From an uncultured bacterium (GTDB lineage: Bacteria; Patescibacteriota; Minisyncoccia; Phycocordibacterales; GWA1-40-21): 64,000 bases of DNA. The stretch is taken from assembly GCA_963804975.1 (NCBI GenBank), contig CAWDSG010000001.1, forward strand, positions 118 to 64,117, given 5' to 3'. The position numbers and the translations under genes were made by a program. The notes below the pieces were generated by a model. The model ran no database searches. It had not been told where the DNA came from and saw only the letters and a list, made by a program, of their open reading frames with translations. Positions 3,014 to 59,155 of the stretch are shown here, in pieces (position 1 is the stretch's first letter; each line of letters starts with the position of its first letter).

Positions 3014-3087
3014 ACGCCTGTAGCTCAGCTGGTTAGAGCGCGAAGCTTATACCTTCGATGTCCCTGGTTCGAATCCAGGCAGGCGTA
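3014..3087 (+). tRNA. tRNA-Ile, anticodon UAU (TAT); no encoded CCA
   Basis: Cloverleaf: acceptor ACGCCTG/CAGGCGT, D-arm GCTCAGCTGGTTAGAGC identical to bacterial tRNA-Ile, anticodon stem CGAAG/CTTCG with loop CTTATAC, T-arm CCTGGTTCGAATCCAGG. Confidence 0.8.
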
Positions 3088-3089
3088 CA

Positions 3090-3711: not shown

Positions 3712-3900
3712 ATGAAAACGAACAAATCATTCTCAAAAAGATTGAAGGTGACAAGAAATGGCAAAATACTCGGAAGAAAAGCCGGGCAGAATCATTTTAA
3801 TGCAAAAGAAAGCAGGAATACCCAATACAAGAAAAAAAAATCAATGATATTGCACTTCACATCAAGGAATAAAGCGAGATTTTTGCCGGGAAGATTTTAG
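3712..3900 (+). CDS. rpmI: 50S ribosomal protein L35
   Basis: 62 aa basic protein, KRxKxT..GK...R..G..H pattern; conserved infC-rpmI-rplT order. Confidence 0.7.
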   Translation: MKTNKSFSKRLKVTRNGKILGRKAGQNHFNAKESRNTQYKKKKSMILHFTSRNKARFLPGRF

Positions 3901-3908
3901 AAATTAAT

Positions 3909-4054
3909 GAGCAAAGCGACTATAATTTCTTAAACCCTGTTAAATAGGGTTGTCGAAAAGAGAGATATTCGCGAAAACAGGTTATATATAATAAAAATAG
4001 TTTATAAACAATAATTTATTTAACAGGGTGGCGATTTTTATAGTCGTTTCACTC
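3909..4054. repeat. Family-1-like nested palindromic intergenic element between rpmI and rplT (termini GAGCAAAGCGACTATAAT ... TTATAGTCGTTTCACTC; inner hairpin AACCCTGTTAAATAGGGTT)
   Basis: outer and inner inverted repeats read directly; contains TATAAT; position corresponds to where L20 autoregulatory leaders occur in other bacteria. Confidence 0.5.
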
Positions 4055-4068
4055 CTTAAAAATCAGCC

Positions 4069-7669: not shown

Positions 7670-7828
7670 AATTATATTGTATCACAAATTAAAATTCTTC
7701 GCGTAATTTTTGAAAATCACGATAAAACCGCCCTCGTCAGGGCGGTTTTTCTCTGCTCAAAGAATTTTTTGCTAAAAATTCTTCTCCGCAAGTCTTTTCA
7801 AAAACTACGCGTGCGGATTTTTCAGGTA

Positions 7829-7939
7829 AGCGAGCGAGGTGTTTCGTTTGAAAAGCCTAGGGAGCGCGACGGCGCGAGCTTGAGGAATTTTCTAGCAAGA
7901 AAATATCCGTGCTTTTCAAATAAAATACCGAGCGAGCTT
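7829..7939. repeat. Family-2 intergenic element (AAGCGAGCGAG - complementary arms - GGAGCGCGACGGCGCGAG core - CCGAGCGAGCTTT), directly abutting rplL stop
   Basis: termini, covarying arms and GC-rich core read directly; three full copies in window. Confidence 0.65.
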
Positions 7940-8368: not shown

Positions 8369-8482
8369 AAGCGAGCGAGGCAATTCAATTTTTAATGCCT
8401 TGGTAGGAGCGTCGGCGACAGACAGAGAAAATTTTTAGCAAAAAATTTTCGTGCATTTAAAATTGAATTGCCGAGCGAGCTT
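8369..8482. repeat. Family-2 intergenic element filling the rplJ-rplL spacer
   Basis: AAGCGAGCGAGgcaattcaattttaa ... ttaaaattgaattgCCGAGCGAGCTTTT with core GGAGCGTCGGCGACAG. Confidence 0.65.
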
Positions 8483-8968: not shown

Positions 8969-8978
8969 TGATTTTTAA

Positions 8979-9089
8979 TGAATGAAGTGAATATTAAAAT
9001 CATGACCCTGTGAAATATTTTGCTTCAGCAAAATGAAAATTTAAAAATTTTCTATTTCACGGGGTGTAGAAATTATTGTCGCTTCGCTC
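8979..9089. repeat. Family-1 intergenic element in rplJ leader (outer IR GAATGAAGTGAAT..TTGTCGCTTCGCTC; inner hairpin CCCTGTGAAATATTTTGC..ATTTCACGGGG)
   Basis: nested inverted repeats read directly; 4 close copies plus 1 variant in window. Confidence 0.65.
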
Positions 9090-9269
9090 TGTAATTTCTA
9101 ACATCGACCTTGTAAATCAAGGCCTCTAAACATAGAGTGTGACCTCGACCAGATTTACGGCTTTCGCCACTGGTTGTCTTTGGCCTTAATATGGTTATAT
9201 TAGCAGAAAATAAAAAAAAGTAAAGAATAAAAAAACCGCCTATAAAAGCGCGGTTTTTAAAAAACCAAA

Positions 9270-9860
9270 CTACTTCCTAAGAGCTAGAAAGCAATCATCT
9301 CCAAACAAATTGAATGGAGTATCAAATTGTGCATCGTACGGATATGGATTATCCGGACGACTTTGTCTTTTCCAATACCTCAGATATCGAATATTAGCAC
9401 CCGATTGTTCAGACTCATAAATTGTTCCGGCAAATAAAATCTTTTTGTCTTCCCACTCATCTGGAACAAGGTATGGCCTGTTCATCAAGTGGTCCAAAAC
9501 GTTAGCATTTAAGACTGGTAATTTCAGATATTCATCAGCAAGATCTTTTATGATAATGTTTCCAAAATTACCTCCTACTGGAAATAATACAATCTCTTTT
9601 GGATCAACGGAAAACATTCCGATTCTTTTATGCGCTCGCACTCTCCAATCTTTATATGGTAGATATGGATCAAGGTCGCAATTGATAAGAGTGAAGAGAA
9701 AGTTAATTTCGGCGTTACCGAGTAATACTTCATGGAATTTCCTGAGTAAACCTTTCCGCTCCGTGAGCATTTTGATTTGCGCATTTGTCCAAGGTCCTTC
9801 ACGCCGAAATGCAGCTTTTAATTCACCAGCCTGATCAACATCGAGCATAAGATCGCTCAT
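9270..9860 (-). CDS. Hypothetical protein inserted between rplB and rplJ
   Basis: 196 aa ORF, no recognisable motif; breaks normal S10/spc synteny. Confidence 0.4.
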   Translation of the reverse strand: MSDLMLDVDQAGELKAAFRREGPWTNAQIKMLTERKGLLRKFHEVLLGNAEINFLFTLINCDLDPYLPYKDWRVRAHKRIGMFSVDPKEIVLFPVGGNFGNIIIKDLADEYLKLPVLNANVLDHLMNRPYLVPDEWEDKKILFAGTIYESEQSGANIRYLRYWKRQSRPDNPYPYDAQFDTPFNLFGDDCFLALRK

Positions 9861-9988
9861 GGTTGACCTCCTTAATTTTATTTGGACGGTGTTCTTTTTA
9901 GTGAACTATGTCCTTTTTGTTTATACCACCAATAAACAATTTTATCAATCGCAACAAAAAACACCCTTCTCGGGTGTTTTTTGAAAAA

Positions 9989-10840
9989 TTATTTCTCTCC
10001 CTTCGCCTTACCCACCTTGCGTCTTGAAACAATTAAATAATTTGAATATTTTTTGGGAGTTCTTGATTTCTGGCCTTTGCCGACATGCTTTCCCCACTTG
10101 GTCTTTGCAAATCTCATGCCTCTTCCGGATTTTCCTTCTCCTCCGCCGTACGGGTGATCCATCGGATTCATAACAGAACCTCTGACTGTCGGTCTGATGC
10201 CGAGATGCCTTGATCTTCCCGCTTTTCCGATGCTCACGAGCCAATTTTCATCGTTTGAAACGCTGCCGATTGATGCCCATGCGTTTTCCGGAACTTTTCT
10301 GACTTCGCTTGAAGGCATTTTTATATGGACATATCCGGCGTCATTTGCCACGATTTGTCCGAAGCTTCCTGCTGACCTTACAAGTTTTGCTCCGCCGCCG
10401 ACTTTGATTTCAACATTGTAAACAAAAGTACCAACCGGAATATTTTTCAAAAGAGTCCTGTTCCCCGCTTTCACTTCCGCTTTATCGGAAACCAAAAACG
10501 TATCGCCGACTTTCATTGATTTCGGCAAAAGGACATATCTTTTTTCTCCATCGGCATAATTCACAAGCCCGATGAATCCGGTTCTGTATGGATCGTATTC
10601 AACTGTCATTATTTTTGCAGGAATATTTTTCTTGTCATATGTAAAATCAATGTCTCTGAAAACCTTTTTGTTCCCGGAACCCTGATGTCTCATTGTGATT
10701 CTGCCTTTGTTGTTCCTTCCGGCATTGTTCTTTTTCCCTTTGGTCAGCGCTTTCAGCGGCCTTGACGCGGTCAAAACTCCCCTGTATGTGACAGTGGACA
10801 TATTCCTTCTTGATGGCGATGTTGGTCTGTAAAATTTCAT
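9989..10840 (-). CDS. rplB: 50S ribosomal protein L2
   Basis: 283 aa; conserved C-terminal GGGEGK..G..R region. Confidence 0.95.
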   Translation of the reverse strand: MKFYRPTSPSRRNMSTVTYRGVLTASRPLKALTKGKKNNAGRNNKGRITMRHQGSGNKKVFRDIDFTYDKKNIPAKIMTVEYDPYRTGFIGLVNYADGEKRYVLLPKSMKVGDTFLVSDKAEVKAGNRTLLKNIPVGTFVYNVEIKVGGGAKLVRSAGSFGQIVANDAGYVHIKMPSSEVRKVPENAWASIGSVSNDENWLVSIGKAGRSRHLGIRPTVRGSVMNPMDHPYGGGEGKSGRGMRFAKTKWGKHVGKGQKSRTPKKYSNYLIVSRRKVGKAKGEK

Positions 10841-10851
10841 AATTGATTTTA

Positions 10852-11151
10852 TTAAATGAATGCGATTTTATCCCCCTTTTTCAAAAATACAAGCGCTTTT
10901 TTGATGGCTGGTTTTATTCCTTTTTTCCCTCTTTTAATGACATTTTTTGCCGGAAGCGTGATCATATTCACTTTTATCGGAGTGACTTTGTAAATCTGCT
11001 TGATTGCTTCCGCTACGGTCTTTTTTGTTGCGCTTGGCAGCACTTCAAAAGTATACATATTTTGCGATTCGGACTTGATGCCGGATTTTTCCGTGACTTT
11101 CGGCTTTTTTATAACCGAAGCGGTATTATATTTCGGAATTATGTTTGTCAT
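10852..11151 (-). CDS. rplW: 50S ribosomal protein L23
   Basis: 99 aa; L23 family, position between rplD and rplB. Confidence 0.85.
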   Translation of the reverse strand: MTNIIPKYNTASVIKKPKVTEKSGIKSESQNMYTFEVLPSATKKTVAEAIKQIYKVTPIKVNMITLPAKNVIKRGKKGIKPAIKKALVFLKKGDKIAFI

Positions 11152-11156
11152 GGCGA

Positions 11157-11951
11157 TTATTTGGCTTTGGCCATCTTATTTTCGATAAATTTGATTGACT
11201 CGGCCGGATTTTCAATGACGATATATTTCATATTCAACAGATCGACAGGATTCATATTCCTGATTTCATCGACTCTGACATTCCCGATGTTCGCAAAACT
11301 TTTTTCAAAGGCGATTTTCTTGCCGGATGTGGCTATGATCGCGCTCGACTTTTTCTTGGTCAGAATATCCGAGCATGTCTTGATTTTGCTCAATGACTTC
11401 AGTATTTCAAGCGCTTCGGTCGTTTTCGGCTTGGCAATCTCAAATTTATCCACAAAAATAACTTCTCCATCCCTCATCTTTTTTGAAAGAATTGTATAGA
11501 GCGCCTTTATTTTCATTTTCTTGTTTATCTTCTTGCTGTAATTTTTCAATGCGTTCGGACCATGAGTAATGCCTCCGCCAACCCAGATTGGCGAACGAAT
11601 GGAGCCGTGTCTTGCCCGACCAGTGCCTTTTTGCTGCCAAGGTTTTTTACCTCCGCCCCTTACTTCTCCTCTGCCTTTTGTATGGGCGTAAATAACTCTT
11701 CTGTCAGCAAGCATTGAGAAAACAACCTGATGCACAAGGTCGGCATTTGGAGTCAGGCCGAAAACATTCGCCGGCAATTTTACTTCTCCGACTTCCTTTC
11801 CTTTTTGGTCATAAACTTTGGCTGTCGAAGGAATTTTCTGAGAAACTTTTTCGGTTTTTTCTGCTTTTTTCGGTTCAGTTTTAACCGCAACCTTCTCCGG
11901 CGCTTTTTTTACAACTTTTTTTGCATTCTTTTTTATAATCTCTTTTTCCAT
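11157..11951 (-). CDS. rplD: 50S ribosomal protein L4 with Lys-rich N-terminal extension
   Basis: 264 aa; GKKPWQQKGTGRARHGSIRSPIWVGGG signature. Confidence 0.9.
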   Translation of the reverse strand: MEKEIIKKNAKKVVKKAPEKVAVKTEPKKAEKTEKVSQKIPSTAKVYDQKGKEVGEVKLPANVFGLTPNADLVHQVVFSMLADRRVIYAHTKGRGEVRGGGKKPWQQKGTGRARHGSIRSPIWVGGGITHGPNALKNYSKKINKKMKIKALYTILSKKMRDGEVIFVDKFEIAKPKTTEALEILKSLSKIKTCSDILTKKKSSAIIATSGKKIAFEKSFANIGNVRVDEIRNMNPVDLLNMKYIVIENPAESIKFIENKMAKAK

Positions 11952-11968
11952 AATAATATATGTAAATT

Positions 11969-12574
11969 TTATCCGCGCACCTCAACGAGCGTTCCTCTCC
12001 TTCCCGGAACCGCGCCGCTTATCAAAAGCTGACTATTTGCCTCGTCAACTCCAAGAATTTTAAGATTTTTTATGGTAACTCTTTCGCCGCCCATCCTTCC
12101 GGCCATTCTCATTCCTTTCGGAACCATATTTCTCAGACCTCCGCTGATGGAACCCGGAGCGTTTTCGGAATGCTTCTGTCCGTGGCTTCTCGGCTGGCCT
12201 TCGAATCCGTGCCTTTTGATGACGCTCTGGTATCCTTTTCCTTTTGAAACAGCGGAAACTTCGATTATGTCCCCAACCGCAAATCCGGAAAAATCTATTT
12301 TATCCCCGACTTTGAATTTTGAAATATCTTCAACTCTGAATTCTTTCATAAATCTCGCATTTACGCCTTTCAGATGGCCTTTCAATGGCTTGTTTATATT
12401 TTTTTCTTTTTTCAGGCCAAAACCGACTTGCAACGCGTCGTAGCCGTCTTTTTCTTTTGTTTTTATCTGAGTCACGGTTAAAGGGCCTGCCGAAAGAATC
12501 GTAACAGGATGCACCTTTCCGTTCTCATCGAAAATCTGGGTCATATTCTGCTTTGTACCGAGTATAAATTTCAT
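11969..12574 (-). CDS. rplC: 50S ribosomal protein L3
   Basis: 201 aa; MKFILGTKQNMTQIFDENG start and L3 core. Confidence 0.92.
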   Translation of the reverse strand: MKFILGTKQNMTQIFDENGKVHPVTILSAGPLTVTQIKTKEKDGYDALQVGFGLKKEKNINKPLKGHLKGVNARFMKEFRVEDISKFKVGDKIDFSGFAVGDIIEVSAVSKGKGYQSVIKRHGFEGQPRSHGQKHSENAPGSISGGLRNMVPKGMRMAGRMGGERVTIKNLKILGVDEANSQLLISGAVPGRRGTLVEVRG

Positions 12575-12587
12575 TTAATTTTCTTTT

Positions 12588-12697
12588 CGAGCGAAGCGAG
12601 TATTGGAAAATTTAACCCTGTGAAATATTTTGCATTAGCAAAATAAAATCTGAAAGATTTTTATTTCACGGGGTAAAAAATTATAATCGCTACGCTC
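12588..12697. repeat. Family-1 intergenic element between rpsJ and rplC
   Basis: CGAGCGAAGCGAG ... CCCTGTGAAATATTTTGCATTAGCAAAATAAA..ATTTCACGGGG ... TTATAATCGCTACGCTC. Confidence 0.65.
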
Positions 12698-12706
12698 TTT
12701 AATTTT

Positions 12707-13099
12707 TTAGTTCATTTTCACATCAATGTTCACACCTGAAGGCAAACTCATGTTGGTGAGAGCTTCAATCACTTTTGCCGACGGATTTATAATATCTATC
12801 AATCTTCTGTGTATCCTCATCTCAAATTGTTCTCGCGCATTTTTGTAGACGAATGACGCACGATTGACCGTGTATTTTTTGATTTCCGTCGGAAGCGGCA
12901 CCGGACCGATGACTTTTGCGTCATGGCGGAGCGCCGTCTCGATAATCTGCTTCACTGAAGCGTCAAGGATTTTGCTGTCGTAAGCCCTGACGCGTATTCT
13001 TAATATTGAAGAACTTTCGATCTTCGCTGGCATTTTCGGCATTTTCACCTTTGATGCGGCCGCTGTTTTCGTATTCTTTTTTATTGCTGTTTTTTCCAT
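12707..13099 (-). CDS. rpsJ: 30S ribosomal protein S10 (true start probably internal Met around 13033-13042)
   Basis: ILRIRVRAYDSKILD... S10 core; N-terminal 20-30 aa of ORF likely leader. Confidence 0.88.
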   Translation of the reverse strand: MEKTAIKKNTKTAAASKVKMPKMPAKIESSSILRIRVRAYDSKILDASVKQIIETALRHDAKVIGPVPLPTEIKKYTVNRASFVYKNAREQFEMRIHRRLIDIINPSAKVIEALTNMSLPSGVNIDVKMN

Positions 13100-13107
13100 T
13101 AATTTTT

Positions 13108-13220
13108 AACGAACGAAGTAACTATAAAAATTATGACTCTGTGAAATATTTTGCATTAGCAAAATAAATTTTTTCAAAAATTTATTTCACGGGATTTAAT
13201 AAAATATAGTCGCTGTGCTC
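13108..13220. repeat. Family-1 intergenic element between tuf and rpsJ
   Basis: GAACGAAGTAACTAT ... GACTCTGTGAAATATTTTGCATTAGCAAAATAAA..ATTTCACGGGA ... ATAGTCGCTGTGCTC. Confidence 0.65.
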
Positions 13221-13229
13221 CTTATTTTA

Positions 13230-14432
13230 TTAAGCAATAACTTTCGTTATAACGCCCGAACCTACGGTCTTTCCTCCTTCCCTGAAAGCAAATCTCATTT
13301 TGTCTTCAAGAGCAATCGGAGCAACGAGCTTTACTTTGAATGTAACCGTATCTCCCGGCATAACCATTTCAACTCCTGATGGAAGAGTAACATCTCCCGT
13401 AACATCTGTCGTCCTCATGTAGAACTGCGGTTTGTAGCCTGTAAAGAACGGCGTGTGCCTTCCGCCTTCCTCTTTCTTCAAAACGTAAACTTCCGCTTCA
13501 AATTCAATGTGAGGAGTGACTGTTCCCGGCTTTGCCAAGACCTGTCCTCTGTGGACATCCTCTTTCTTCGTACCTCTAAGCAAAACTCCGGCATTGTCTC
13601 CTGCATCTACGGTTTGCAGCTGTTTATTGAACATTTCGATACCGGTAATAACTGTTTTTGTTGTTGGTTTTATGCCGACAATTTCAACTTCGTCTCCGAT
13701 TTTTGATCTTCCTCTCTCGACTCTTCCCGTAACAACAGTTCCTCTTCCTTCGATTGAAAAGATGTCTTCTATAGGCATAAGGAATGGCTTATCAATATCT
13801 CGGGTTGGAAGCGGAATATATGTATCAAGAGCGTCCAAAAGTTCAGTAATGCATTTTGCATCAGGATCATCCGCGCTTTTGCAAGCCAAAGCTTTCGTGG
13901 CTGAACCTTTGATAATCGGGGCATTTGCTCCGTCAAAACCATATTTTGTAAGAAGTTCTCTGACCTCCGTTTCAACAAGATCCAAAAGATCTTTGTCGCT
14001 TACAAGATCGCATTTGTTCAAAAATACGACTATTCTCGGAACACCAACCTGCTTTGCCAAAAGAATGTGCTCTCTCGTCTGAGGCATAGGGCCGTCAACT
14101 GCAGACACGACAAGGATAGCGCCGTCCATTTGAGCGGCACCGGTAATCATGTTTTTGACGTAGTCAGCGTGACCAGGACAATCTACGTGCGCGTAGTGCC
14201 TTTTGTCCGTTGAGTATTCAACGTGAGAAATAGCAATAGTGATGATTTTTGAAGCATCTCTTCTGCCGGCCGATTCCGATGCTTTCGCAACCTGATCGTA
14301 TCCGACGGGCTTTGCAAGGCCTTTGAGGGATTGAATGTATGTGATAGCCGCTGTTAAAGTTGTCTTGCCATGGTCAATGTGACCAATGGTACCGACGTTT
14401 ATGTGCGGCTTGTCTCTTTTAAATTCTGCCAT
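13230..14432 (-). CDS. tuf: Elongation factor Tu
   Basis: 400 aa; [21 protein letters not shown] motifs. Confidence 0.97.
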
Positions 14433-14515
14433 ATTGTTTTGCTGATTTTAAAAGCGGAGCGCGCGAGAATTTGGCTCTGCCTAAAAAACCAACTTAAAAT
14501 GATTAATTCCCATCA

Positions 14516-14566
14516 TCCAGCACCTTCTTTTGGTTTTTTAAAAAACCAAAAGAAGGTGCTGGACTG
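14516..14566. repeat. 51-bp perfect palindrome (CCAGCACCTTCTTTTGGTTTTTTaaaaAAAACCAAAAGAAGGTGCTGG) in tuf-fusA spacer
   Basis: exact self-complementarity read directly. Confidence 0.6.
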
Positions 14567-14810
14567 GAAAGCTTATAAATTACGACTCGCAATTTTCGCG
14601 CAATAAAAATCTGCAAAAACAGATAATTAATTCCGCCAAAAACAGCGGAATAAGCACTCAAACGCGTACCGCTGATAATAGCAAAAGAATAAACGGGCGT
14701 CAACTGAATAAATGTTGGCTATTTTACACATACAAAAAAGGGTTTTTGTCCTAAAAAATCGGACAAAAACCCTGCTATTTTCGTTTTAATTTATTTTTTA
14801 TTTCTGAAAA

Positions 14811-14987
14811 AAATCGACAAAAGACAAAACCATCTTATCTATCAACATAGCTAATGCCGTTATTGGAATCAGAATAACAGAAAGTGGCCAAAAAAACTCA
14901 CCAATAACAATAAAAGTACCGGACCACATTTTTTTAAAAAAAGAACTTTTGGGAACGACTTCCGTTTGGTTTTCCATTTCAAATCCT
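14811..14987 (-). CDS. Small (58 aa) single-TM protein, below ORF-track size cutoff; GAGGA RBS 7 nt upstream of ATG
   Basis: translated by hand from reverse strand: MENQTEVVPKSSFFKKMWSGTFIVIGEFFWPLSVILIPITALAMLIDKMVLSFVDFFQK; located downstream of fusA. Confidence 0.35.
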
Positions 14988-15048
14988 CGATTCTGACGAA
15001 TTTATTTTCTAAATTTATATTAATATTATGGCGAAATATTGTCAATCA

Positions 15049-15083
15049 AAAAAGCGGGGCGCCTTCGGCGCCCCGCTTTTTTG
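15049..15083. terminator. Rho-independent terminator downstream of fusA
   Basis: aaaaaGCGGGGCGCCttcGGCGCCCCGCtttttt. Confidence 0.7.
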
Positions 15084-15106
15084 TTTTTATTTTATAATTT
15101 TCAACT

Positions 15107-17271
15107 TTAAACTCTTTGAGTTGTAACTCCGCGTGTTTCAATAATAGTTTTAGCCACATTTGGTGGGACGATTTCATAATGATCAAATTCCATAATCACG
15201 GATGCTCTGCCTTCGGTAAGAGATCTCAAAGTAGTGACATAGCCGAACATTTCGGCAAGCGGAACCATCGCTTTTATGACTTTATTCATTCCTCTGTCAA
15301 ACATTTCCGTTATCTGGCCTCTTCGCGAATTGATGCTTCCCGACACGTCTCCCATAAATTTTTCCGGAGTGACAACTTCTACTTTCATCATCGGCTCAAG
15401 AAGTACCGGTCGTGCCCTTTTTGCGGCGTCCTGAAACGCCATTGAAGCGGCAATCTTGTAAGCAAGTTCGGATGAGTCAACATCGTGATACGAACCGTAC
15501 GTGAGTTCGCAGGAAACATTTACCACCCTGTATCCGGCAAGAATTCCCCTTTCCATCGCCTCTCGGACGCCTTTCTCAACTGCCGGAATAAATTCCTGCG
15601 GAATGACGCCTCCTTTGATTGAATTGATAAATTCAAAATCATCATATCTCTCGACATTCTTGGGAATTTTTGCGCCTTCTTCAAGTTTCTCCATCGGCTT
15701 GATTTTGATAAGCACGTGGCCATACTGGCCTTTTCCTCCGGATTGTTTGATGTATTTTTCTTCTTTTTCCGCCTCGCCGGTGATTGTTTCTTTGTAAGCA
15801 ACCTGCGGTTTGCCGACGTTCGCTTCCACGCCGAATTCTCTTTTCATCCTATCCACAAGAATTTCAAGATGAAGTTCTCCCATACCCGCCATAACCGTCT
15901 CGCCCGTCTCCTGATCGGATTTTATCTTGAATGTCGGATCTTCGTCCGAAAGTTTTTTCAAAGCCAGTCCCATTTTTTCCTGGTCGGCTTTTGTTTTCGG
16001 TTCAATTCTTAAAGTGATAACCGGTTCAGGAAAAATAATTTTATCCAAAAGTATCGGATGGTCTTCATCGCAGAGTGTATGGCTTGTTTTTGCGTTTTTA
16101 AGGCCGACAGCCGCCGCGATTTCTCCGGCAAAAACCGTTTCAACGTCTTCCCTGTCGTTTGCGTGCATTCTGACAACTCTGCCAAGGCGCTCCTTTTCTC
16201 CCGTCGTTGAATTGTAAATGTAAGTGCCGGCTGAAATAGTTCCGGAATAAACTCTGAAATATGTAAGCTGGCCGACAAAAGGATCGTTTTGAAGTTTGAA
16301 GGCAAGGGCGCAGAAGGGCTCCGTCATCGGATGCATGCCTGAAAATTTCTTCGCCTGTTCTCGGATCAATTCCTTTTACCGGCGGAATATCAAGAGGAGA
16401 AGGAAGATAATCCACGACAGCGTCAAGAACCAGCTGAACCCCTTTGTTTTTCAGAGCCGAGCCGGTAAAAACAGGGACTATCGTGTTTGCGATTGTCGCT
16501 TTTCTTAAAACAACTTTCAGTTCATCAACCGGAATTTCTTTTCCTTCCAAATAATCGTTCATGAGCTTTTCGTCGTTCTCGGCGATTTTTTCGACAAGCT
16601 CTGAACGGTATTTTTTTGCCTCCGCCAAAAGATTTGCCGGAATTTCCTCTTGCCTCACTTTGTCGCCCATTTCTCCGTCAAAATAAAATGCCTTCATCGT
16701 CATCAAATCCACAAGGCCTTTGAAATCAGATTCTGCGCCGATAGGAATCTGCATTCTGACCGCATATTTTGTCAGCCGCTCCAAAATTGACTGATATGAT
16801 CTTTCAAAACTTCCTCCTGTCCTGTCCAGTTTGTTTATAAAACAGATTCTTGGAACTTTTCCTTCATCGGCATATCTCCAGTTTGTTTCCGATTGCGGTT
16901 CAACTCCGGCAACACCGTCAAAAACAACGACAGCGCCGTCAAGAACTCGCAGAGATCTTTTTACCTCCGCGGTAAAATCAATATGGCCAGGCGTATCAAT
17001 AATATTAAATCTGACTTTTTTGCTCGTATCCTCTTTCGGCATATATGTCGGATTCCAAAAACAGGTGATGGCGGCGGAAGTGATGGTGATTCCTCTTTCT
17101 CTTTCCTGCTCCATCCAGTCGGTCGTGGTATTTCCGGTCGTGGACTTCGCCGATTTTGTGCTGGGTGCCTGTGTAATATAAAATTCTTTCGGACACGGTT
17201 GTTTTTCCCGCATCAATGTGGGCAATAATTCCGAAGTTCCTGACTTTTTCCAGTGGATAATCGCGTTTCAT
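15107..17271 (-). pseudogene. fusA: Elongation factor G interrupted by two +1 single-nucleotide insertions (three ORF pieces: 17005-17283, 16140-17225, 15107-16369)
   Basis: N-terminus [29 protein letters not shown] shifts frame at gaCCgga (about 17150); second shift at gacgGag (about 16335) between RHASDD and [10 protein letters not shown]; removing one C and one G restores a canonical ~720 aa EF-G. Confidence 0.8.
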
Positions 17272-17276
17272 AATTT

Positions 17277-17747
17277 TTACCACGCAAAATGCGCAAATGC
17301 TTTGTTGGCTTCGGCCATTTTGTGGACATTTTCTTTTTTCTTCACCGCATCGCCCTCGTTTTTTGAAGCGGCAATTATTTCATTCGCCAATTTTTCCGCT
17401 ATCGGCGCGCCTTTTTTCGTCCTGGCGGCTTCCACGATCCATTTCATGGAAAGCGCGGAGCGTCTTGCCGGCCTGACTTCAACAGGCACCTGATAATTCG
17501 CGCCTCCGACTCTTTTTGACCGGACTTCCATGTTCGGAGCGGTGTTTGAAAGGGCAAGCTCGAAAATTTCAACGGGATTTTTGACTTTCGCTTTTTCCTT
17601 TATCAATTCTAAAGTTCTGTAGATATTTTTCTCGGCTACGCTTTTTTTGCCGTCATACATTATATAATTTATAAGCTTTGAAATTTTTTCAGAACTGTAT
17701 TTATAATCCGGTTTCGGCGCTTTTTTTGTTTTTATTTTTCTTCTCAT
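17277..17747 (-). CDS. rpsG: 30S ribosomal protein S7 (start at MRRKIKTKK)
   Basis: [13 protein letters not shown]...; C-terminal S7 core. Confidence 0.9.
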
Positions 17748-17762
17748 GACTAATTTTATTAT

Positions 17763-17849
17763 GAGCAAAGCGAATTTTAAAATTGTCACCCTGTGAAATA
17801 TTTGAATTCTTATTTCACGGGGTTAATAAATTATTCTCACTTCGTTCGT
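17763..17849. repeat. Family-1 intergenic element (shorter copy) between rpsL and rpsG
   Basis: GAGCAAAGCGAATTTT ... CACCCTGTGAAATATTTGAATTCTTATTTCACGGGG ... TTCTCACTTCGTTCG. Confidence 0.6.
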
Positions 17850-17853
17850 TAAT

Positions 17854-24639: not shown

Positions 24640-25137
24640 TCAAATATTTTTTATTCCATAGTCAGCGATTTTTCCGCAAAAAAGCCTGGGGAATTTCCCA
24701 TAGGCAAATGAGGTTGCGATTTCATCGCATCGCTCGTTGCCGGCAATTCCTGCGTGGCCGGCGACATGATTCCATATTATATTTTTGCCTTTCGACGCTT
24801 CCATCAATTCTTCCCAAAGATCGCGGTTCAGCACCGGTTTTTTTGCGGAATTTTTCCAATTATTTTTCCGCCAGCCATAAATCCACTTTGTTATTCCGTT
24901 TATCAAATATGAGGAATCTGTGTTTAAAATTATTTCTCCGAAACTTTTCCCCACAAATTGCAAAGCTTTTATGGCGCCCGTGAGTTCCATTCTGTTATTT
25001 GTCGTATATTTTTTAGCACCGCCTATCTCCACAACACTTCCATCAGGCATTGAAACAATCGCTCCCCAGCCGCCGGGACCGGGATTGCCGCTTGATGAGC
25101 CGTCGGAAAAAATAATAATTTTGGAAATATTTTCCAT
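24640..25137 (-). CDS. rnhA: Ribonuclease HI
   Basis: 165 aa; DGSSSGNPGPGGWGAIV, TNNRMEL, HAGIAGNERCDEIA catalytic residues. Confidence 0.88.
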   Translation of the reverse strand: MENISKIIIFSDGSSSGNPGPGGWGAIVSMPDGSVVEIGGAKKYTTNNRMELTGAIKALQFVGKSFGEIILNTDSSYLINGITKWIYGWRKNNWKNSAKKPVLNRDLWEELMEASKGKNIIWNHVAGHAGIAGNERCDEIATSFAYGKFPRLFCGKIADYGIKNI

Positions 25138-25148
25138 ATATGGTATTT

Positions 25149-25263
25149 AAAGCGAGCGAGACAATGCGATTTTGATGGCTACGGAGCGCGACGGCGCGAG
25201 TATCGAGCAAATTTCCAGCAGGAAATTATGCGTACCTCAAAATCGCATTGCCGAGCGAGCTTT
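25149..25263. repeat. Family-2 intergenic element between cupin gene and rnhA
   Basis: AAGCGAGCGAGacaatgcgattttga ... GGAGCGCGACGGCGCGAG ... tcaaaatcgcattgCCGAGCGAGCTTT. Confidence 0.65.
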
Positions 25264-25266
25264 AAT

Positions 25267-58850: not shown

Positions 58851-59155
58851 TTTTTATTTTTACTAGCTGATAAAGCCAGTGATGGAATTTTTGGAAAACA
58901 AAAAGCCCACCACATGGGTGATGGCTTGCGCCATCCATACCAGTTTCCCGATATGACCAATGACGATAGCCCCATATGATGGGTTTTCTATTCGTCATTG
59001 GCTTTCTTTCATCATGCCAGCAATTACTCACTGGTTTAGATTACTTCTACTTATTCAGTTGTCAGTGAACATAATAGCTCTTTTGCAACTATTATTCAAC
59101 CGATCATATCGCCGATCACTTCTTTTGCTAAGCGAAGTTGCCAACAGACAAAATT

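Follow-up and report, generated by a model that had tools for sequence, protein, structure and literature searches.

The window, a stretch of DNA of 64 kb from a bacterium of the candidate phyla radiation (CPR), carries five copies, and no others, of a repeat of about 110 bases made of three hairpins (H5, core and H3), and Pfam assigns the genes downstream of them to ribosomal proteins L10, L3, S10, S7 and L20. All five copies are in the sense orientation relative to the downstream gene and each of them reaches the ATG of that gene. A first-pass annotation of this DNA had placed five elements in front of these ribosomal protein genes, and their presence was confirmed by the sequence, by a full-length alignment (A1, 66% mean column identity), by Pfam and by a covariance model, R1, which was built from 44 foreign copies without any window sequence. 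R1 recovers exactly the five sites (55.8–74.5 bits sense), with a lower antisense score at each, and nothing else convincing in 64 kb. The copies and two further features are:

2881–2968, no strand assigned: hairpin in the gap between a 724-aa ORF and tRNA-Ile, distant relative of the cassettes (inverted repeat I7)
3896–4068, plus strand: rplT (L20) variant cassette between rpmI and rplT; H5 3896–3934, core arms 3935–4028, H3 4029–4068; R1 64.4 bits
8969–9102, minus strand: rplJ (L10) cassette; H5 about 9066–9102 (GAGCGAAGCGA in loop, AATAAT), core 9006–9065, H3 8969–9005; R1 74.5 bits sense; fold −29.8 kcal/mol, z = −5.0
9100–9201, minus strand: older L10-leader-like structure (RF00557 L10_leader) upstream of the rplJ cassette
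12575–12706, minus strand: rplC (L3) cassette; H5 about 12674–12706 (TATAAT), core 12616–12673, H3 12575–12615; R1 60.7 bits; fold −38.1 kcal/mol, z = −7.2
13100–13229, minus strand: rpsJ (S10) cassette; H5 about 13195–13229 (TATATT), core 13137–13194, H3 13100–13136; R1 55.8 bits; fold z = −2.9
17748–17853, minus strand: rpsG (S7) cassette, short form with a single-loop core; H5 about 17823–17853 (AATAAT), core 17789–17822, H3 17748–17788; R1 72.9 bits; fold z = −4.0

The five copies measure 106–173 nt and contain no internal ORF. Three of them occupy entire intergenic regions (rpsJ-rplC, tuf-rpsJ and rpsL-rpsG), while H5 of the rplT copy overlaps the rpmI stop codon. At rplJ, H3 ends at position −1 of the ATG (8968), and the S7 gene truly starts with the ATG at 17747 instead of the GTG at 17789, which yields a protein of 156 aa as in the relatives. 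The rplT copy (inverted repeat I16) has core arms CCCTGTTAAATA / TATTTAACAGGG enclosing a 70-nt insert. The core arm CCCTGTGAAATA, with two mismatches at most, occurs 15 times in the window against 5.1 expected, a number reached in none of 100 shuffles, and the arms of the five copies account for ten of these 15 matches. In the same stretch GAGCGAAGCGA occurs 31 times (14.3 expected). The hairpin at 2881–2968 has arms ...CATGTGAAATTT / AAATTTCACATG... and GAGCGAAGCGA in its loop, with a weak R1 match (19.2 bits, E = 0.008). The window copies are mutually 77–80% identical and equally close to foreign copies, and thus do not result from a very recent burst.

The cassette consists of three consecutive, separate hairpins, and this arrangement is backed by covariation. 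H5 is an A/T stem whose loop contains GAGCGAAGCGA and whose 3' strand carries a TATAAT-like box; its variable position is Watson-Crick in 13 of 14 copies, with three pair types. In the core, a 12-bp stem that hardly varies in sequence (CCCYGTGAAAT / ATTTCACRGGG; stem invariant in 44 of 44 copies) closes two small hairpins of variable sequence; the inner part folds as two hairpins in 56 of 66, their sequences being unrelated. In H3 the loop holds the complementary 11-mer TCGCTTCGCTC, and the 3' strand of the stem runs up to the start codon; the helix extends as far as the A of the ATG in 43 of 44 copies. In this helix 98.9% of the cells are paired and 46 double-change cells are spread over five pairs, which none of 500 shuffles reaches. 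T-rich direct repeats (TATAATTTTCTTAA ... TGATGATTTTCTAA) flank the core and are at the same time strands of H5 and H3. The anatomy first proposed, in which outer inverted termini form a nested outer stem, needs revision. Covariance analysis supports the three helices but not the pairing of the outer 11-mers: these form a real inverted repeat at the consensus level and the outer stem is energetically favoured in the window copies, but the 11-mers in the H5 and H3 loops do not co-vary with each other across the family and their pairing is not conserved. Likewise, the elements do lie just upstream of the ribosomal protein starts, but the supposed gap of 10–20 nt measures 8–15 nt from the element ends then drawn and, far from being a spacer, forms the 3' strand of H3, so that the element truly ends at −1 of the ATG.

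The family extends far beyond the window. On Paceibacteria-type metagenome contigs, about 70 unique cassettes adjoin the ATG of different, mostly housekeeping genes, always in the same orientation. Among the genes fronted are nusA, secE, serS, mutM, yebC, dnaK, clpP, clpB, fusA, mraZ, ruvA, rsmE and many ribosomal protein genes, and the cassette is thus not specific to the latter. In 575 kb of metagenome loci R1 finds about 80 further sense copies, up to three of them within 4.5 kb. The bare core hairpin is present at 120 loci at least among the matches listed, from many phyla and often several per genome, and it is multi-copy in Bacteroidota, Cloacimonadota and other phyla. We found no Rfam match to the elements and no description of the cassette in the literature; this is apparently a very large and undescribed family. 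With relaxed thresholds, the only Rfam matches at the elements are a sub-gathering L10_leader match and chance-level miRNA and RAGATH-32 matches; RAGATH-32 (RF02922) scores 25.8 versus 41.8 bits over model positions 32–78 only, at one copy and in antisense, and does not match in six other hairpin-carrying loci.

We compared the loci with those of syntenic relatives, which have the same gene order and S10 proteins 89–95% identical. No R1 copy is found there, the cassette being absent from the syntenic loci L002, L005, L131 and L127–L130, and the window copies are thus gains specific to this lineage, by which older leaders were replaced or split. In these relatives, rpsJ-rplC contains a different conserved hairpin (GGGCATGATCCCGC...) that is missing from the window, tuf-rpsJ measures only 35–48 nt with no element, and rpsL-rpsG is a spacer of 18–19 nt. 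Upstream of rplJ, a match to RF00557 at 9033–9201 (35.5 bits versus a gathering score of 44, E = 0.011) starts upstream of the cassette and runs into it, and the same block of sequence precedes rplJ in the cassette-free relatives L002 and L005. The L10-leader-like structure is outside the element and marks the insertion point of the rplJ cassette. In this genome, then, the older leader hairpin between rpsJ and rplC has given way to a cassette, the spacers of tuf-rpsJ and rpsL-rpsG have each been filled by one, and at rplJ a cassette has come to separate the L10 leader from its gene. These comparisons bear on the suggestion that the element is a regulatory RNA shared by ribosomal protein genes, that is, an autoregulatory leader common to several of their operons. 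All five window copies precede such genes, as this suggestion requires, but elsewhere the cassette fronts the many unrelated genes named above, it is missing at the same genes in close relatives, the hairpin of the relatives' rpsJ-rplC region has been replaced, and no Rfam ribosomal protein leader family reaches its gathering score at the elements. Like L10_leader (RF00557) and L20_leader (RF00558), the cassette is structured sequence upstream of ribosomal protein genes, but it matches no leader model, and the L10-leader-like structure is older and separate. A ribosomal protein leader is thus highly improbable and is effectively refuted by the gene contexts.

There is no GIY-YIG ORF in the 64-kb window, and the link to such a gene therefore rests on other genomes. 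In some copies elsewhere an ORF of 84–93 aa lies between the core arms, within the same H5/H3 frame, and matches the GIY-YIG family (Pfam PF01541, E = 2e-15 to 1e-16). The last codons of this gene (...SYFTG, stop) are the 3' core arm, and the C terminus LKSY(F/L)TG is conserved in more than 300 homologues. In 40% of cases a TAA or TGA follows the end of a bare hairpin, just as it does in the ORF-bearing form. The partner proteins are the catalytic domain only, with no separate DNA-binding domain, and there is a weak match to the group I intron endonuclease model TIGR01453 (E = 5e-5, below cut-off). A 23S_rRNA_IVP gene on a Bacteroidetes contig is split by the arm-ORF-arm unit, with no target-site duplication evident. 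We know of no DNA-binding or transposase activity for an 85-aa GIY-YIG catalytic domain alone. When the 70 nt inserted in the rplT copy were compared with GIY-YIG ORFs, no significant similarity emerged, and the insert is not detectably a remnant of an ORF.

The first-pass annotation had also proposed that every copy carries a −10-like GCGA(C/T)TATAAT box. The exact box is present only in the rplC and rplT copies, while the others read GCGACAATAAT, GCGACTATATT and GTGAGAATAAT; a −10 role is plausible, and the box doubles as the 3' strand of the co-varying H5 hairpin. A scan for the sigma-70 pattern of −35 and −10 hexamers 16–18 nt apart flagged the rplT copy (TAGAAA-17-TATAAT within H5, 10/12) and the rplJ copy (TAGAAA-17-AATAAT, 9/12) and left the other three unflagged, in an AT-rich window with 51 matches against 32 expected. 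Across the family, the gene upstream of the cassette is divergent in 16 of 59 cases, in several of them at a distance of only 94–135 nt, which requires a promoter within or beside the cassette. Terminator-like hairpins lie immediately upstream of H5 at several loci. The canonical H5 with the upstream 11-mer is found in only 24 of 69 cassettes, about one third, and the promoter part is therefore not universal. The covariation of H5 suggests a function of the single strand; H5 would be missing from a transcript that began at the TATAAT. Could the element be a DNA promoter with an operator, in which the inverted 11-mers bind one looping regulator that co-regulates housekeeping genes and the hairpins are incidental? 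One site would be the pentamer pair AGCGA-AGCGA within the promoter spacer, the other its complement about 90 bp further downstream. One 11-mer does lie between the −35-like and −10-like hexamers, and each is conserved by itself without mutual covariation, the pattern expected of protein-binding sites. However, such an operator accounts neither for the compensatory changes seen in H5, in H3 and in the inner hairpins, nor for the GIY-YIG ORFs that the arms enclose, nor for the absence from close relatives; the upstream 11-mer is confined to the minority of cassettes just mentioned, and no candidate regulator was identified. We regard it as improbable.

A host RNA leader deserves more weight, although we still judge it unlikely. 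The cassette would then be a conserved 5'-UTR module of many housekeeping genes and the GIY-YIG gene merely its parasite, homing into the core loop as a conserved target present in many copies. Possible roles are an mRNA-stabilising 5' stem, RNase III sites splitting operon transcripts, or an H3 that organises Shine-Dalgarno-independent initiation. The compensatory changes in all three helices, the strict orientation with H3 in fixed register with the ATG, and the position of the downstream genes, mostly first in highly expressed operons, point in this direction, as do the missing Shine-Dalgarno sequence in most window genes and the fact that ORF-less copies far outnumber ORF-bearing ones. Nevertheless, the same genes in close relatives have no cassette, which is therefore not needed for their expression. 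The antisense fold is more stable than the sense fold (core 40 versus 15, H3 61 versus 5), G-U pairs are not enriched in the sense strand (34 versus 49), and G-T and A-C departures in H3 are about equal; the base-pair counts thus give no sign of selection specifically on the sense RNA. Moreover, the core stem sequence is conserved across cassette-free phyla, which fits protein recognition or a coding origin, and stop-codon triplets persist after the 3' arm.

The cassettes look like mobile DNA and not like a ribosomal protein regulator, and they share features with several known systems. The Correia elements of Neisseria are palindromic repeats of the MITE type that carry promoters. Like them and other MITEs, the cassette is short (below about 500 bp), non-coding and present in several copies per genome, with terminal inverted repeats and long hairpin potential; it is intergenic, often just upstream of genes, carries −10/−35-like boxes, varies in presence at orthologous sites of related genomes and shares its inverted repeats with an ORF-bearing partner. 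It has, however, no known sequence similarity to these elements, its partner is a GIY-YIG nuclease and not a DDE or other known transposase, no clear target-site duplication was found, and it shows strict gene orientation, a fixed ATG register and three co-varying hairpins instead of one stem. REP/REPIN elements are extragenic palindromes paired with RAYT (HUH, Y1) transposases. They share with the cassette conserved, extragenic, multi-copy hairpins, a single small gene flanked by the same arms and vertical persistence with occasional spread. Here, however, the gene between the arms is GIY-YIG (PF01541) and no HUH (Y1) gene was seen in the examined loci; there is no GTAG head, the copies sit at gene fronts in CPR, and the core sequence is common to several phyla whereas REPINs are lineage-specific. 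GIY-YIG homing endonuclease genes of the I-TevI type resemble the element in their domain, in presence or absence at conserved sites and in having ORF-less and decayed copies beside intact ones. They differ from it in that the cassette gene encodes only about 85 aa without linker or DNA-binding domain, is not intron-borne, is bounded by a 12-bp inverted repeat of which one arm is the gene's last codons, and is associated with many non-homologous gene fronts as targets. Finally, putative mobile promoters are near-identical upstream regions before unrelated genes; the cassette is likewise one upstream block before many non-homologous genes, within and between genomes, but its structure of three hairpins is defined, it extends to the start codon and it comes with a candidate mobilising gene.

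Altogether, the absence from syntenic relatives, the many unrelated genes fronted and the GIY-YIG-bearing versions fit the mobile promoter/structure cassette that the first-pass annotation had offered as one option. We consider it somewhat probable (roughly 55%) that the five elements are MITE-like, gene-less copies of a GIY-YIG-derived composite palindromic cassette, abundant in Paceibacteria-type CPR, that supplies a promoter and a leader. The core arms would originally be the terminal inverted repeat of a mini-element of about 290 bp encoding only the nuclease of 84–93 aa. This nuclease may recognise the invariant core stem and cut there, and repair from another copy would then spread or homogenise the elements. 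Loss of the ORF, probably by deletion, would leave hairpin-only forms such as those in the window. Copies would be retained in front of genes because they meet the needs of the gene downstream: H5 would provide a sigma-70-like promoter (TAGAAA, 17–18 nt, TATAAT), and the cassette would also supply an A/U-rich leader, without Shine-Dalgarno sequence, ending in H3. More tentatively, and with somewhat less confidence than an even chance, we propose an undescribed mobile element of about 290 bp in which a 12-bp inverted repeat bounds nothing but an 85-aa GIY-YIG gene and has the last codons of that gene as its 3' arm. It would occur in CPR, Bacteroidota, Chloroflexi, Cloacimonadota and other phyla, and in Paceibacteria its hairpin-only derivatives would be nested in a three-hairpin promoter/leader cassette that has come to occupy the 5' ends of dozens of housekeeping genes. 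If this is true, these genes, ribosomal protein operons included, would owe to the cassette the regions where their transcription and translation start.

All five elements described by the first-pass annotation were recovered in place and could be aligned from end to end in the sense of the downstream gene (alignment A1), and shuffled sequence has far fewer occurrences of the core arm, and likewise of the outer 11-mer, than the window. Each element is a cassette of about 110 bases that abuts the ATG of the gene behind it (rplJ, rplC, rpsJ and rpsG on the minus strand; rplT on the plus strand, in a variant with a 70-nt insert). The 8–15 nt formerly read as a gap before the start codon belong to the cassette itself, and the S7 gene starts with the ATG at 17747. 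The GCGAYTATAAT box attributed to every copy is exact in two copies only, while the others deviate from it. A covariance model of the cassette family (R1), built from 44 foreign copies and no window sequence, detected the five copies in sense orientation at 55.8–74.5 bits, with every antisense score below the sense score, and gave no other convincing match in the window. The same model found extra copies on metagenome contigs, up to three of them within 4.5 kb. Three similar copies of the window are near-best matches of one another (77–80% identity).

The window is from a member of the Patescibacteria (CPR); its S10 protein has its best matches among CPR proteins, and the genes and RNA considered here are as follows.

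Features of the window
58920–59042, minus strand: LOOT RNA (RF03000; 86.8 bits, well over the gathering score)
Minus strand: rpsL, rpsG, tuf, rpsJ, rplC, rplB, rplJ and rplL (Pfam)
Minus strand, among the Pfam-confirmed genes: fusA, rplD and rplW (position and synteny with relatives)
9270–9860, minus strand: 196-aa ORF between rplB and the L10 leader (no Pfam match)
Plus strand: rplT (Pfam)
Plus strand: infC and rpmI (synteny)

We compared the window with relatives that have the same unusual order, rpsL-rpsG-fusA-tuf-rpsJ-rplC-rplD-rplW-rplB-rplJ-rplL, and an S10 protein 89–95% identical. Their tuf-rpsJ and rpsL-rpsG spacers (35–48 nt and 18–19 nt, respectively) are much shorter than those of the window, and between rpsJ and rplC they carry a different conserved hairpin (GGGCATGATCCCGC...GCGGGATCCTCTGCC) that is gone from the window. 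An L10-leader-like structure lies immediately before rplJ in the relatives; the window has kept such a block at about 9100–9201 (RF00557, 35.5 bits, below threshold), and the rplJ cassette is wedged between this block and the ATG. A family covariance model run on about 79 kb of the relatives' loci found no copy. The five elements are lineage-specific.

Several other features of this region were recorded. From 9989–10840 onwards the S10 operon is broken off after rplB and continues with rplJ-rplL, an order common to the syntenic relatives L002 and L005. Most genes here lack a Shine-Dalgarno sequence and have A/T-rich leaders; the 196-aa ORF at 9270–9860 is among the few with a strong one (AAGGAGG), the relatives have only 182–196 nt of non-coding DNA at its site, and it looks like an inserted gene. 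The fusA position is occupied by two overlapping minus-strand ORFs (15107–16369 and 16140–17225) where relatives have a single 720-aa ORF; either an assembly error, a frameshift or a pseudogene accounts for the split. Between tuf and these two ORFs is a gap of 674 nt with a perfect 48-nt palindrome, TCCAGCACCTTCTTTTGGTTTTTTAAAAAACCAAAAGAAGGTGCTGGA, at 14516–14563, and a strong terminator-like hairpin lies at 15047–15083 on the plus strand, opposite to tuf and these ORFs. A tRNA-Ile at 3014–3088 (plus strand) has TAT (UAU) as its anticodon, uncommon among bacteria, and is preceded by a long hairpin (2881–2968) with GAGCGAAGCGA in its loop. A second nested-palindrome family (sense: AAAGCTCGCTCGGCAATT ... 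CTCGCGCCGTCGCGCTCC ... AATTGCCTCGCTCGCTT; genes on the minus strand) occurs after rplL (7828–7939), between rplJ and rplL (8369–8482) and 15 nt upstream of the ORF start at 25137 (25147–25265); in its arms GAGCGAG is repeated directly, not inverted, and would therefore form a symmetric internal loop.

In the family as a whole, the cassette consists of three hairpins in series: H5, the core and H3. Covariance analysis revealed compensatory changes in H3 and H5, with the core stem invariant. In the H3 alignment (A2), 98.9% of cells are paired and 46 cells in five of the ten pairs are double changes, a covariation that none of 500 shuffles equalled and that collapses in slid controls. According to RNAalifold the H3 helix runs to the A of the ATG (a U-A pair in 43 of 44 copies), and its 3' strand has one bulged base, mostly A. 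H5 is canonical in 24 of 69 copies, TATAAT forms the 3' strand of its stem, and its variable position holds G-C, A-T or T-A pairs in 13 of 14 cases. The sequence of the core stem is the same in 44/44 copies for most pairs, while its interior is made of two small hairpins with unrelated sequences in 56 of 66 copies. The outer inverted termini of the earlier description match the motifs in the H5 and H3 loops; at the consensus level these are indeed complementary, but they do not co-vary across the family. The five window copies themselves fold at minimum energy into a nested outer stem (z between -2.9 and -7.2). As a conserved pairing, GAGCGAAGCGA with TCGCTTCGCTC was rejected, the arms of one element matching each other no better than those of other elements; as a selected helix it was rejected likewise, with 230 Watson-Crick pairs against 234 ± 6 in permutations and with G-U (39) about as frequent as A-C (43). 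No sign of selection specific to the sense RNA was seen when strands were compared (the antisense strand gives the more stable folds, and the sense strand shows no enrichment of G-U pairs), a test that is not decisive as to the strand of action, since the energies are biased by purine-rich loops. The covariation seen in H5 speaks for an additional role of single-stranded forms that include this hairpin, as read-through RNA or ssDNA.

A search of JGI metagenomes for the sequence that joins the 3' arm to H3 returned at least 120 loci. About 70 unique complete cassettes were drawn from metagenome loci, CPR genome loci and the window, and all have identical orientation and end at the ATG of a gene. 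From N-terminal sequences, we take these genes to include rplC, rpsL, rpsG, rplN, rplX, rpmH, rpsT, rpmE and rpsS for ribosomal proteins, and also secE, nusA, serS, mutM, yebC, dnaK, clpP, clpB, fusA, mraZ, ruvA, rsmE and others besides. Inner-hairpin subfamilies are common to cassettes before different genes. The family is huge and not specific to r-protein genes, and the shared r-protein regulatory RNA proposed initially is not supported; moreover, the elements match no Rfam family at gathering or relaxed thresholds, sub-threshold matches to RAGATH-32 and miRNA families reflecting merely two adjacent hairpins. The other option proposed, a mobile cassette, fits the findings, the copies being lineage-specific here and placed before many unrelated genes elsewhere; the initial interpretation is thus supported in part. 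A reading of TGTGAAAT / ATTTCACA as CRP site or DnaA box was dropped because the arm spacing ranges from 10 to >90 nt.

In several cassettes the core arms enclose, in place of the two small hairpins, an 84–93 aa ORF encoding a GIY-YIG catalytic domain (PF01541). The 3' core arm supplies the last codons of this ORF, ...L K S Y F/L T G stop (AAATCTTATTTCACGGGG followed by TGA or TAA), and ORF-bearing copies are framed by the same H5 and H3, for instance before rpsS on a Nomurabacteria contig. Frameshifted and truncated GIY-YIG ORFs are also present among cassettes. The protein family has >300 members at 90% clustering, from CPR, Chloroflexi and Bacteroidetes, all with the same C terminus, and on a Bacteroidetes contig a 23S_rRNA_IVP gene is interrupted by an arm-ORF-arm unit that lacks H5 and H3. 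The core represents the terminal hairpin of a mini-element carrying a GIY-YIG gene. No GIY-YIG gene was found by tblastn within the 64-kb window; the 70-nt insert in the rplT copy resembles a decayed GIY-YIG ORF by eye only, and that origin is not supported, its blastn-short matches being no better than those of shuffles (86 of 200 as good). At three foreign loci (L147, 1098–1349; L170, 680–938; L152, 3775–4026) GIY-YIG ORFs, one of them frameshifted, lie directly upstream of a complete ORF-less cassette, so both types of unit can sit in tandem before one gene. On Nomurabacteria contigs rpsS heads a separate unit; upstream of it lie a GIY-YIG cassette and an rRNA gene that contains LAGLIDADG ORFs.

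The core also occurs as a bare hairpin, at no fewer than 120 loci in GTDB species representatives, mostly intergenic and often several per genome, in Bacteroidota, Cloacimonadota, Patescibacteria, Verrucomicrobiota, WOR-3, Omnitrophota and more. This multi-copy presence in many phyla is explained by the core being the end of the mini-element. The AT-rich arm sequence is retained even in GC-rich genomes. The triplet after GGG, which is the stop-codon position of the ORF form, is TAA or TGA in 40% of hairpin ends, which agrees with the short forms having arisen from those that bear the ORF. A phage origin of the core was rejected, the pattern giving only three hits in 2.9 million viral contigs. 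In a Bacteroidales MAG, head-to-tail arrays of bare cores with identical 18-nt inner parts (locus L020, about 7675–7760; locus L062, 100–188) are a local tandem amplification.

Overall, the best explanation, to which we give a probability of roughly 55%, is a mobile cassette built on the GIY-YIG element. That the core stem is invariant while inner hairpins and flanks vary freely suggests recognition of its sequence, and the obvious candidate for this would be the small nuclease whose gene lies between the arms. Cleavage at the core, followed by repair with another copy as template, could spread the ORF and homogenise the copies. Survival at gene fronts would find its simplest explanation if the cassette provided expression signals. 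A divergent upstream gene faces 16 of 59 cassettes, several within 94–135 nt, and at several loci a terminator-like hairpin immediately precedes H5. A sigma-70 scan flags two window copies (TAGAAA-17-TATAAT or AATAAT) as possible promoters; a start 6–9 nt past the box would place the core hairpin at the extreme 5' end of the mRNA.

The closest known systems are palindromic MITEs that carry promoters (Correia elements, for example), REP/REPIN-RAYT and GIY-YIG homing endonuclease genes. The cassette has the hallmarks of a MITE, save that no clear target duplication is seen and its partner gene is not a canonical transposase; it differs from REP/REPIN-RAYT in that its partner is GIY-YIG rather than HUH, and from homing endonuclease genes in that this partner is without their DNA-binding domain. 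GIY-YIG ORFs have been reported in non-intron insertions of CPR rRNA genes (PMC11270868). Openly accessible full-text literature yielded no description of the cassette by arm sequences or by GIY-YIG combined with inverted repeat, MITE or CPR, and there is a fair chance that the GIY-YIG mini-element is itself an undescribed class.

In practical terms, the cassette would mark true start codons and operon heads of unculturable Paceibacteria and is a candidate portable expression module, and the invariant core and the small nuclease together form a candidate protein-DNA (or protein-hairpin) recognition pair that is directly testable. DDE, HUH, serine and tyrosine enzymes otherwise prevail in prokaryotic mobile DNA; if our explanation is true, a GIY-YIG-based, hairpin-bounded mini-element would be added to it. 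In small CPR genomes the start regions of many core genes would then derive from a selfish palindromic cassette, which would bear on the origin and turnover of promoters and Shine-Dalgarno-free leaders in streamlined genomes.
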